Source: Candidatus Woesearchaeota archaeon (lineage in GTDB: Archaea; Nanobdellota; Nanobdellia; Woesearchaeales; UBA525). Taken from it: a stretch of 42,675 bases of DNA. The first letter of the stretch is position 1. Every line of letters starts with the position of its first letter. The stretch covers positions 1 through 42,675 of the forward strand of contig JACWAN010000096.1 in NCBI GenBank assembly GCA_014874255.1, read 5' to 3'. The notes under the pieces were generated by a model. The model worked only from the letters and a program-made list of their open reading frames with translations, searched no databases and was not told the origin of the DNA. Below are positions 1,309 through 3,480 of this stretch, one piece after another. The translations under genes were made by a program, and so were the position numbers.

Positions 1309-3480
1309 TTATCGCGAGAATTCCGCGAGGCTCTTGTTCTCCGAGAGCACTTTCAGCTCCTCGCGGATCGAGCGCCTTTCTCCTTTCTGCTCGTGCGCCT
1401 TGCTGAGCAGCGAGGTGACCGTCAGCACCTGCTCGCTCATCGAGCCGTCGCGGTAGATCGTGCACCCCTTGCACCCGAGCTTCCACGCCAGCAGGAAGAC
1501 GTTCTCCACGTCGAGCAGCGTCGCGTGGTTCGGTAGGTTCACCGTCTTCGAGACCGCGTTGTCGACGTGCGCCTGGACCGCGGCCTGCATCCGGACGTGC
1601 CACTCCGGCGGGATGTCGTGCGTCGTGACGAAGACGCGCTTCACCTCGTCCGGCACCTCTTTCGCAGCGGCCAATCCGAAGTTCGCGATCCGCTCGACGA
1701 GCTCCTCGGTGTAGAGGTCGAGTTCCTGGAGCCGCTCCTTCAGGTGGGGATCGATGTAGTAGAACTCCTCGCCGCCGAGCACCTTCTTGACGTAGCTGAC
1801 GTTGAACAGCGGTTCGATCCCGGAACTCGTCTCCGCGATCATGGACGTGCTGCCCGTCGGGCTGATCGCGAGCCTGGACGCGTTCCGCAGCTTCCGCTCC
1901 TCCGTCTTCTCCTTGCCGGTGAACCGCTTGGATTTGGCACAGTAGACACTCATCTTCCAGTCCGGGAACGGGGTCCGCTCCTTCGCGAGTGATTCGCTCG
2001 CCTCGTCCGCCGCCTCGCGGACCGCTTTCATCACGTCGCCCGCGGTCTTGACGCCCTCCTCGCTGTCGTACGGGATGCGGAGCTGGACGAGCATGTGCGC
2101 CAGCCCCATCACGCCCAGCCCGATCTTGCGGTGGCGCCACGTCACGGTCTGCGCCCGCTTGATAGGATACTGCGTCGCCTCGATCATGTCGTCGAGGAAC
2201 CGGACGCCGAGCGCCACGACTTCTTTGAGTCGCTTCCAGTCCACAACGTGCTCGTCCGTGACGAAGTTCGCGAGGTTGACGCTGCCGATGAACCCCTGCT
2301 CGTACGCGCTGAGCAGGAACTCCGCGCACGAACTGGTAGCTTCGAACGGATGGTCGGGCACGGGATTGGAGCGCTTCATCGCGTCCTTGAACAGCACCCC
2401 AGGATCGCCGTGGTTCCACGCGCTCGCCACGATGAGGTCGAAGACCTGCTTCGCGTTCATCCGCGCAGTTATTTCCTTCGTGGAGGGGTCCTTGAGCGCG
2501 TACTCCTTGTCCGCGATGACGGCGTGCATGAACTCGTCCGAGAGCAGCACGCTCAGGTTGAAGTTCTCCAGGATGCGCTCCTGGGATTTCGCGGTGATGA
2601 AGTCGAGCGCGTCCGGATGCGTGACGTCGAGCACGGCCATGTTGCCTCCCTGGCGTCGGCCGCCCTGCTTGATCGTCTTCGCCGACTCGCTGAACAGCCG
2701 GAGGAAGACGAGCGGCCCGGACGCGACGCCGCCGATGGACTTGACCCGCGCCCCCTTCCGCCTGAGCGAGGAGAAGTTGAACCCCGTTCCGCACCCCACT
2801 TGTTGCATCTTCGCCGCGTCGTACAGCGCGCGGTAGATCGCGGTGAGATCATCGCCGACCGGGATGGCGATGCTGCTCGCCAGCTGCTGGTAACCGGTGC
2901 CCGCGTTCATGAGGCACGGGCTGTTCGGCAGGAAGTCGAGGTCGCGCATCGCGCGCTTGAACCGGTTGCGCCACTGGCGCTGTTCCGCCTCGTCAGCGCC
3001 GAACCTCTTCTCCGCCGCCGCCACCGACTTGGCGACGCGGTCGAACAATTCGTCCGGGGATTCGAACCAGCCGCGCTCCTCGTCGCGCAGCAGGTACCGT
3101 TCGCGGAGGAGCTTGAGCGCGTTGATGCTCAGGTCTGTCGAGACCTGTTTGCCGATGAGCGCGGATTTCGCGTTCCGTTCGGCAGCACGCTGCTCCCGGT
3201 ACAGGATGAAATGCCTGGCGACGCGATGGTGGCCGCTCTCCATGAGCGTCTCTTCGACAAGGTCCTGGACCTCCTCGACGTACGGCAAGCGTTTCCCGCT
3301 CTCCTTCGCGTAGACCCTGAGGAGCTTCTTCTCGACCTTCTCCGCGAGCTCCGCGACGGGGAGATTCTCCTCGGACGCTCCGGCCGCGAGCTCGATGACG
3401 TGCTCGATCTTCTCCCGCTTGTACGGCACGATCCTGCCGTCCCGCTTCTTGATCTTCTCGAGAACGAACTGCTGCGCCAT
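1309..3480 (-). CDS. nrdJ: Class II ribonucleotide-reductase-like protein with N-terminal ATP cone and non-canonical active site
   Basis: Start MAQQFVLEKIKKRDGRIV (ATP cone). RNR motifs LRERYL, FLPNSPCLMNAG, GTGFNFS, GDPG, RKIGLGVMG, SPTGS, SSGIEP, DNAVSKTVNLP, KGCTIYRDGS. The redox Cys pair is replaced (see findings). Confidence 0.85.
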   Translation of the reverse strand: MAQQFVLEKIKKRDGRIVPYKREKIEHVIELAAGASEENLPVAELAEKVEKKLLRVYAKESGKRLPYVEEVQDLVEETLMESGHHRVARHFILYREQRAAERNAKSALIGKQVSTDLSINALKLLRERYLLRDEERGWFESPDELFDRVAKSVAAAEKRFGADEAEQRQWRNRFKRAMRDLDFLPNSPCLMNAGTGYQQLASSIAIPVGDDLTAIYRALYDAAKMQQVGCGTGFNFSSLRRKGARVKSIGGVASGPLVFLRLFSESAKTIKQGGRRQGGNMAVLDVTHPDALDFITAKSQERILENFNLSVLLSDEFMHAVIADKEYALKDPSTKEITARMNAKQVFDLIVASAWNHGDPGVLFKDAMKRSNPVPDHPFEATSSCAEFLLSAYEQGFIGSVNLANFVTDEHVVDWKRLKEVVALGVRFLDDMIEATQYPIKRAQTVTWRHRKIGLGVMGLAHMLVQLRIPYDSEEGVKTAGDVMKAVREAADEASESLAKERTPFPDWKMSVYCAKSKRFTGKEKTEERKLRNASRLAISPTGSTSMIAETSSGIEPLFNVSYVKKVLGGEEFYYIDPHLKERLQELDLYTEELVERIANFGLAAAKEVPDEVKRVFVTTHDIPPEWHVRMQAAVQAHVDNAVSKTVNLPNHATLLDVENVFLLAWKLGCKGCTIYRDGSMSEQVLTVTSLLSKAHEQKGERRSIREELKVLSENKSLAEFSR

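Follow-up and report, generated by a model that had tools for sequence, protein, structure and literature searches.

Among the described systems, the dimeric class II ribonucleotide reductase (RNR) NrdJ of Thermotoga maritima (structures 1xje and 3o0o) is the nearest to the gene considered here, and in this enzyme we take C134 and C333 to be the redox pair, C322 to be the thiyl cysteine, and N320 and E324 to be the Asn and Glu of the active site. The positions of the pair, referred to below as βA and βF, are those of C225 and C462 in E. coli. Mutants lacking the pair, such as E. coli NrdA C225S/C462S and L. leichmannii ribonucleoside triphosphate reductase (RTPR) C119S/C419S, run the first half-reaction and then release base. 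According to passages of Burnim et al. (2022, PMC9669993), the NXCXE loop and the cysteine pair are common to classes O, I and II, NPCXE is present in 3,175 of 3,347 class II sequences, with 172 departing from it, and formate-dependent class III enzymes still need the βA Cys together with a finger-loop Met. The βA Cys is listed as a proton/hydrogen donor common to all three RNR classes in a table of Lundin et al. (2015, PMC4390871), and a passage of Loderer et al. (2021, PMC8365446) presents the P-N-S-P loop as a diphosphate specificity mark that is otherwise fully conserved and leaves open why many genomes keep several NrdJ genes. Here, we describe a gene on a 42,675-nucleotide stretch of DNA from Candidatus Woesearchaeota archaeon (contig JACWAN010000096.1; the window hereafter means this whole stretch, and G000 its genome), namely the minus-strand gene at positions 1309–3480, which encodes a 723-aa NrdJ-like protein (P0001). 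This protein retains the thiyl cysteine and has lost the reducing cysteines, and its sequence gives what we consider nearly an even chance that it is a live adenosylcobalamin (AdoCbl) thiyl-radical enzyme that now does its chemistry without protein thiols.

The frame encoding P0001 is uninterrupted and ends in a stop codon at 1309–1311. The stop-to-stop frame extends to a TTG at 3663, and the ATG at 3480 was taken as the start on the strength of homologs that are 723 aa long. Pfam searches detected an ATP-cone (residues 9–99), an all-alpha RNR domain (116–196) and the barrel (202–676; PF02867, 403.8 bits), and nothing beyond these, and the NCBIfam equivalog TIGR02504 (NrdJ_Z) matched at 620.5 bits against a cut-off of 399.95. 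The closest solved structure was 1xje (E 1.5e-100, phmmer/HMMER alignment), and an AlphaFold2 model built from the 32 clade sequences described below (pLDDT 82.2, pTM 0.84) also matched 1xje_A best in Foldseek (TM 0.83, 34% identity). By sequence and fold, P0001 is a class II RNR homolog of full length with an ATP-cone. It shares with T. maritima NrdJ the fold, the thiyl Cys, the Glu, the P-N-S-P and PTGS loops, loop 2, SKT(I/V)N and YRDGS, but differs in having S203, S383 and G396 at the positions of C134, N320 and C333, respectively, in its Cys-free tail with a new motif, and in its ATP-cone, which the solved construct does not contain. NF005401 (PRK06948), the NCBIfam family of a 'ribonucleotide reductase-like protein', is an RNR-barrel homolog that NCBI has set apart from true reductases; P0001 was rejected as a member, as it scored 239.9 bits, far under the cut-off of 906.

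The alignment to 1xje, which shows correspondence only, places Cys385 and Glu387 of P0001 at the thiyl Cys and Glu positions. No Cys follows residue 673 in the translation, and residues 681–723 are Cys-free, so that a C-terminal shuttle pair is lacking. The motifs ISPTGS (539–544), SKTVNLP (644–650) and KGCTIYRDGS (671–680) are present. Because P0001 retains one defining feature of a functional NrdJ (the thiyl Cys) and lacks three (the NXCXE Asn, the βA/βF pair and the C-terminal pair), we have not filed it as a functional NrdJ, as judged from its predicted catalytic features. The original prediction, made from the letters of the stretch, had described the uninterrupted 723-aa frame, the residue changes with their codons, the missing C-terminal Cys pair and the retention of the ATP-cone, SPTGS, SKTVNLP and KGCTIYRDGS, and the translation, the Pfam matches and the alignment to 1xje agree with it on each of these points.

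We then compared the 120 best homologs of P0001, drawn from a collection of 5.8 billion proteins, at the five positions 203, 383, 385, 387 and 396. The pattern S/T-S-C-E-G/A was observed in 32 of them, the canonical C-N-C-E-C in 76, C-S-C-E-C in 9 and T-D-C-S-V/A in 3. Given its recurrence in these 32 homologs, the residue pattern is not due to chance. The 32 proteins (hereafter the clade) represent 32 distinct 90%-identity clusters, with identities to P0001 as low as about 48%. Among them, S383, C385 and E387 are invariant (32/32); at position 203, 31 have Ser and one has Thr, compared with Cys in 76/76 canonical relatives, and at position 396, 30 have Gly and two have Ala. It had been asked whether an S/SSC/G pattern defines a clade; the 32 homologs do form one clade, but the middle residue of 'SSC', between S383 and C385, varies among S, A and P (motif S-[SAP]-C-A-E). 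Two clade members carry the source name Candidatus Woesearchaeota, and this, together with the size of the window's genome (1.29 Mb), fits the placement in DPANN that had been proposed. Three DNA sequencing runs, all from one study, contained 83–100% of the sampled sequence words, and one of the three may be the source; no RNA run was listed.

The clade is distinguished from the canonical set by further co-ordinated switches (G358A, G386A, N397F, A540S and F580L), and the residues specific to it include Q345, R488, D492, E596, E659, N660 and T689. A replacement Cys with at least 90% conservation was not seen in the clade (C189 in 9/32, C230 in 16/32, C380 in 12/32 and C673 in 21/32), and the only cysteines conserved at this level are C385 and C670. 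All 32 proteins carry a new Cys-free tail motif (...S-V-R-E-E-L-K-x-L-x-x-N-K-S-L-x-E-F), in which N715 is present in 32/32, R706, L709, K716 and L718 each in 31/32 and F721 in 30/32. Of the 226 positions conserved at 90% or more in the 76 canonical relatives, 139 stay at this level in the clade, and retention was best in the C-terminal half (25/33 for residues 401–530 and 35/50 for residues 531–690). Loop 2 and the ATP-cone motif are conserved in the clade, and the SKTVN and YRDGS motifs are retained.

A quick IQ-TREE tree (LG+G4) was computed for residues 105–690 with the five trait columns removed. Its 87 rows comprised the 32 clade proteins, 12 non-canonical 'other' proteins, 24 canonical proteins (every third one, with proteins of at least 800 residues left out) and 19 proteins from genome loci. 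Forty-one Cys-less rows were located on one side of a branch with a Shimodaira–Hasegawa-like approximate likelihood ratio test (SH-aLRT) value of 100, and on this tree the clade is monophyletic, which indicates a single origin. The ratio of nonsynonymous to synonymous substitution rates (dN/dS), which had been suggested as a check, was 0.065 at dS 0.37 between the window gene and its ortholog in G006 (a member of the same genus), compared with 0.091 for cobO in the same pair of genomes; more distant pairs had dS values of at least 0.7 or undefined and are indicative only. The clade gene is under strong purifying selection. A decaying or assembly-artefact gene without function would be suggested by the missing catalytic residues and by nothing else, whereas the uninterrupted frame, the single pattern in 32 distinct 90%-identity clusters, the low dN/dS, the gain of a conserved tail and the presence of the gene in 8/8 genomes of the genus all argue against it, and we regard this explanation as effectively refuted. 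The clade-defining pattern, the SH-aLRT value and the dN/dS support the earlier suggestion of targeted loss and fit neofunctionalisation better than decay.

P0001 retains the thiyl Cys385 and Glu387, and with them its ATP-cone, loop 2, the phosphate loops and the class II motifs of the C-terminal barrel, all of which would serve in ribonucleotide binding, AdoCbl binding (by motif), radical start, 3΄-H abstraction and 2΄-OH elimination. The parts it has lost, which are the cysteine pair of the active site, the Asn of the finger loop and the cysteines of the C-terminal shuttle, would have served in the delivery of hydrogen and electrons. In the live enzyme that we favour, homolysis of AdoCbl would generate a thiyl radical on Cys385, this radical would take the 3΄-H from a bound nucleoside diphosphate, and Glu387, acting as general base, would aid the loss of the 2΄-OH. 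The 3΄-keto-2΄-radical would then be quenched without protein thiols, either by return of H from Cys385, which would amount to a redox-neutral 2΄-dehydration and is slightly preferred, or by an external reductant other than cysteine. The helix conserved in the new C-terminal tail may take the place of the redox tail and serve for docking or as a lid. The redox-pair mutants resemble the clade in that the same residues are gone with the thiyl Cys and Glu intact, but the clade is natural, ancient and selected rather than crippled, and carries the five further switches and the new tail. We tentatively propose, as a possibility somewhat short of even, that the clade descends from class II RNRs and uses AdoCbl and a thiyl radical for non-reductive or protein-thiol-independent ribonucleotide chemistry (e.g. 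regulated 2΄-dehydration to a 3΄-keto-2΄-deoxynucleotide, or the use of a donor that no RNR is known to use), having arisen once in the family, with parallel attempts in neighbouring DPANN lineages.

Several observations weigh against such chemistry. AdoCbl binding and radical formation would follow from the retention of motifs only. A 3΄-keto-2΄-deoxynucleotide product is unstable, and we know of no physiological use for it. The retention of the ATP-cone and loop 2 would fit a role linked to deoxynucleoside triphosphates (dNTPs) or a purely regulatory role equally well. Conservation is looser in the allosteric half than in the C-terminal half (14/26 retained positions in the ATP-cone and 26/48 in residues 199–300), deeper clade members show a partly relaxed P-N-S-P phosphate loop (N186 in 23/32 and P188 in 22/32), and in one subclade (10/32) a Cys is present at position 395, beside the lost βF position. 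No ketoreductase or conserved partner gene except cobO was seen in the neighbourhoods. Moreover, pyruvate formate-lyase (PFL) and formate-tetrahydrofolate ligase (FTHFS) were not found in any of the five genomes searched (G000, G002, G009, G010 and G008; 81.5–97% complete), in a search that did not include FocA or formate dehydrogenase; an internal formate supply is thus not indicated.

Among 41 genomes of the order, the variant was found in 8/8 members of the window's genus (71–100% identity) and also in G009 (genus g3, 54%) and G010 (genus g4, 48%, S-S-C-E-A). When a clade profile was applied to 401 genomes of the order, a sample containing six unpublished genomes counted only as non-carriers, G000, G002 and G009 alone scored above 1,100 bits, with 932 bits as the next highest score, and the same three were found at E ≤1e-285 among 401 genomes of the phylum. 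Among the genomes searched, the clade is confined to family f1, to which G000 belongs and whose members are archaea with small genomes.

In line with the co-occurrence with a canonical NrdJ that the original prediction had proposed to look for, a second class II RNR gene was present in 10/10 carrier genomes inspected, with the catalytic residues checked in three of the ten (G000, G009 and G010). In the eight genus members, the second gene is a long NrdJ, located on the same contig at a distance of a few kb in G000, G002, G004 and G005, and the long NrdJs of the latter three are 67–71% identical to that of G000. The G000 long NrdJ has the canonical βA Cys, NPCSE loop, βF Cys, P-N-S-P loop and Cys-rich C-terminus; it belongs to a different subclass from the variant, with about 22–25% identity over a central barrel stretch and up to 43% in short segments, and these are the only two PF02867 genes of the genome. 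In G009, a monomeric RTPR-type NrdJ is located 6 kb from the variant and has the equivalents of C119, N406, C408, E410 and C419 and the C-terminal pair, and in G010 the second gene encodes a 710-aa NrdJ with QLSAC, NPCGE, the βF Cys and a Cys-rich end. The possibility that G009 (97% complete) has the variant as its sole RNR was ruled out by its canonical RTPR-type NrdJ, which was first missed because PF02867 barely detects enzymes of this type; G012 has the RTPR type too. No NrdD match at the family cut-off was obtained in five genomes searched, G000 included. Given this second class II RNR gene in every carrier inspected, P0001 is taken not to be the thioredoxin-driven dNTP source of the cell.

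The main rival explanation is a regulatory or cofactor-handling pseudoenzyme without turnover, which would sense ATP, dATP and dNTPs by means of its ATP-cone and specificity site, or hold AdoCbl. It would thereby modulate the canonical class II RNR that has no cone, either in a complex with it or through the availability of the cofactor. In addition to the constant presence of the second gene, the location of the variant on the same strand and contig as the long NrdJ, a few kb away, in G000, G002, G004 and G005 (with the same layout in the genus g2 counterparts), the lack of an ATP-cone in either partner type (long NrdJ and RTPR type), the conservation of the ATP-cone motif and loop 2 in the clade, and losses that look stepwise across paralogs (tail-less, then Asn to Ser, then the Cys pair) all point in this direction. 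A non-catalytic RNR subunit has a precedent in yeast Rnr4. Like the clade, Rnr4 and the herpesvirus R1 homologs are RNR-subunit paralogs kept beside an active enzyme after loss of catalytic residues, but they lose the radical or metal site, whereas the clade keeps the radical Cys and loses the reducing apparatus. Loss of the radical site, the mark by which we recognize dead RNR pseudoenzymes, was not seen in the clade: Cys385 and Glu387 are invariant amid replaced catalytic residues, and other Cys-less lineages keep the thiyl Cys as well. A pure binder would have no need of an invariant thiyl Cys. The low identity and different subclass of the long NrdJ also argue against a shared complex, and so does the partner in G009: the insertion domain of RTPR replaces the dimer interface, and since this partner is of the monomeric RTPR type, one common heterodimer mechanism is unlikely. 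Furthermore, a barrel of 620 residues maintained at such a dN/dS would be a high price for a genome of 1.3 Mb to pay for a sensor. For the earlier idea of a subunit lending its ATP-cone, the absence of the cone from the long NrdJ was upheld, but the RTPR-type partner in G009 and the invariance of the thiyl Cys and Glu weaken it. We regard a pseudoenzyme of this kind as possible but rather unlikely.

In the model, residues 680–701 of the tail have pLDDT values below 50 (disordered), and a helix at 705–715 is predicted at low confidence. A tail that combines conservation with poor docking in the monomer model would suit a partner-binding element, as expected under a further explanation, that P0001 is a true ribonucleotide reductase with donors in trans. 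A partner redoxin or small thiol would then be recruited by the tail into the space opened by the Cys to Gly and Cys to Ser changes, or formate would act directly as in class III. The residues at all three lost positions have become smaller, and the retained ATP-cone, loop 2 and nucleotide-binding loops make most sense if the products feed dNTP pools. Thioredoxin-reductase-like genes were detected in 5/5 genomes searched, and formate-using RNRs are a known precedent, as a passage of Lundin et al. (2015, PMC4390871) indicates. However, the features of formate-dependent class III enzymes have no match in P0001, in which the βA Cys common to all three classes is Ser203, a finger-loop Met is missing and no further (glycyl-radical) Pfam domain is present. 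The Asn of NXCXE is also Ser, the searches of five genomes for PFL and FTHFS were negative, the inspected neighbourhoods showed no conserved redoxin gene, and the constant second class II RNR gene leaves no evident need for such an enzyme. We consider donors in trans improbable; likewise, the alternative reductant mentioned among the original options is not indicated by the genomes.

One or both reducing cysteines were also lost independently in several neighbouring lineages. On the tree, separate losses are represented by G021 L018 (A-S-C-E-A), by G012 L023 (A-S-C-E-A), which is nested among Cys-keeping paralogs of genus g2, and by the T-D-C-S-V/A trio (P0051, P0067 and P0071). In a profile search of 1.84 billion representatives, which gave 34,226 matches at E ≤0.001, the best 150 were inspected. 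The clade pattern was present in four of these 150 (P0008, P0044, P0123 and P0130), and they also included two Cys-less types that are not on the tree, P0155 (S-D-C-E-T) and P0200 (S-D-C-D-A), as well as P0251 (G-I-T-E-C), in which the thiyl Cys is lost instead. The C-terminal Cys pair is missing in P0051, P0067, P0071, P0155, P0200, L018, L023 and P0251, and the Asn or Glu is sometimes lost too in these other ATP-cone lineages. The thiyl Cys survives in all but one, and its repeated survival after loss of the reducing cysteines argues, in our view, that it is still in use.

Tail-less ATP-cone NrdJs (P0035, P0036, P0038, P0045, P0046, P0050, P0054, P0062, P0076 and P0117, and L019 and L022 of genus g2) end straight after YRDGS without C-terminal cysteines, and most have the finger-loop Asn replaced by Ser. 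The C-S-C-E-C paralogs among them (P0045, P0046, L019 and L022; genus g2 and other DPANN) resemble the clade in genomic position, in the change of Asn to Ser and in lacking the C-terminal Cys pair, but retain the two reducing cysteines and lack the NKSLxEF tail. On the free tree, these paralogs fall among canonical sequences, and an approximately unbiased test did not reject joining them with the clade (p 0.4). A stepwise history, in which the tail was lost, Asn then changed to Ser, and the Cys pair was finally lost with gain of the new tail, would fit these data and is not proven. Matches in G011, G012, G014 and G038 had raised the possibility of read-through of an in-frame TGA; translation of G012 and G008 showed that the stops are ordinary, that the overlapping cobO frame comes after them, and that they conceal neither a tail nor a selenocysteine. 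Two high scorers in the profile search, P0121 (1600 aa) and P0122 (1351 aa), are natural NrdJ–NrdJ fusions of two complete canonical modules in tandem, the first without a tail and the second continuing into TSCPD and Cys-rich domains, and were excluded from the clade since both modules are canonical. Three head-to-tail NrdJ-like frames (956–3001, 2974–4662 and 4677–6719), the middle one without an ATP-cone region, were observed at G038:C60:950-6719, and at G119:C12:10310-12361 an ATP-cone NrdJ match is broken by three different stop codons and is probably a pseudogene or an assembly problem.

The gene cobO, encoding an ATP:corrinoid adenosyltransferase, directly follows the variant in G000–G006 (7/8 genus members) and in G010, which is consistent with the use of AdoCbl. 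In G007, a SurA/PPIase-like gene follows the variant and cobO is on another contig, and in G009 cobO is not adjacent. Because cobO also follows Cys-keeping tail-less paralogs of genus g2 (G008 and G013) and separately degenerate ones (G012 and G021), the linkage is a trait of the whole ATP-cone paralog lineage, and the suggested association of cobO with this clade in particular is not supported. A layout of long NrdJ, about one gene, ATP-cone NrdJ(-like) and cobO is common to genera g1 and g2. A predicted complex of P0001 with CobO scored 0.00 and 0.00, which is evidence neither for nor against pairing. Between the two nrdJ genes of the window (3699–8448), a set of metal- and anion-handling genes is located; in G002, this gap holds only an SNF-family symporter. 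A 700-aa protein without a Pfam match, encoded downstream of the long NrdJ in the window, is kept beside the long NrdJ in G002, G004 and G010. The coordinates of all features are summarized in Table 1.

Table 1. Positions in the window of the variant gene, its parts and the surrounding genes
Feature	Position	Strand	Evidence or remark
723-aa NrdJ-like protein P0001	1309..3480	-	Translation, Pfam, NCBIfam, HMMER alignment
ATP-cone, residues 9-99	3184..3456	-	PF03477, 72.5 bits; K12, R13, G15 and K24 conserved at ≥90% in the clade
Ser203, at T. maritima C134 position (βA)	codon 2872..2874	-	HMMER alignment to 1xje
Finger-loop tip S383-S-C385-A-E387	2320..2334	-	HMMER alignment to 1xje
Ser383, at T. 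maritima N320 position	codon 2332-2334	-	HMMER alignment to 1xje
Cys385, at T. maritima C322 position	codon 2326-2328	-	HMMER alignment to 1xje
Glu387, at T. maritima E324 position	codon 2320-2322	-	HMMER alignment to 1xje
Gly396, at T. maritima C333 position (βF)	codon 2293..2295	-	HMMER alignment; neighbouring Asn is Phe397
Cys-free C-terminal tail, residues 681-723	1312..1440	-	Disordered linker, then clade motif
Tail motif R-S-V-R-E-E-L-K-x-L-x-x-N-K-S-L-x-E-F, residues 703-723	1312-1374	-	Clade alignment
cobO, ATP:corrinoid adenosyltransferase	643..1281	-	PF02572, 176 bits; 27 nt downstream of the variant
Canonical long NrdJ without ATP-cone	9112..12660	-	Class II N-domain, barrel, TSCPD/Cys-rich C-terminus; start uncertain
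ArsR-type regulator	3699-3983	+	Between the nrdJ genes
Cation-efflux protein	5254-6153	+	Between the nrdJ genes
TauE-type exporters	6157-6993 and 7750-8448	+	Between the nrdJ genes
FmdE-domain protein with DksA/TraR zinc finger	7022-7660	+	Between the nrdJ genes
Long open reading frames without Pfam match	4215-5453, 8709-9137, 13018-15120	-	Pfam scan

No published description of the clade was found in the literature searched, which left supplements and subscription journals outside its scope. The clade can be considered a natural version of the classic redox-pair mutants, in which the radical Cys, the Glu, the nucleotide parts and, by motif, the B12 parts are kept and the reducing cysteines are gone, and there is a substantial chance of new chemistry. 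If P0001 is a live enzyme, it may bring to light either an unprecedented radical reaction or a reductant not seen before in deoxynucleotide synthesis, and this, if true, would be a new activity in the RNR superfamily. If it is a regulator, it would be the first RNR large-subunit homolog known to us that has turned regulator with its radical site kept. In either case, the clade is relevant to the question of why multiple NrdJ genes are maintained in many genomes.

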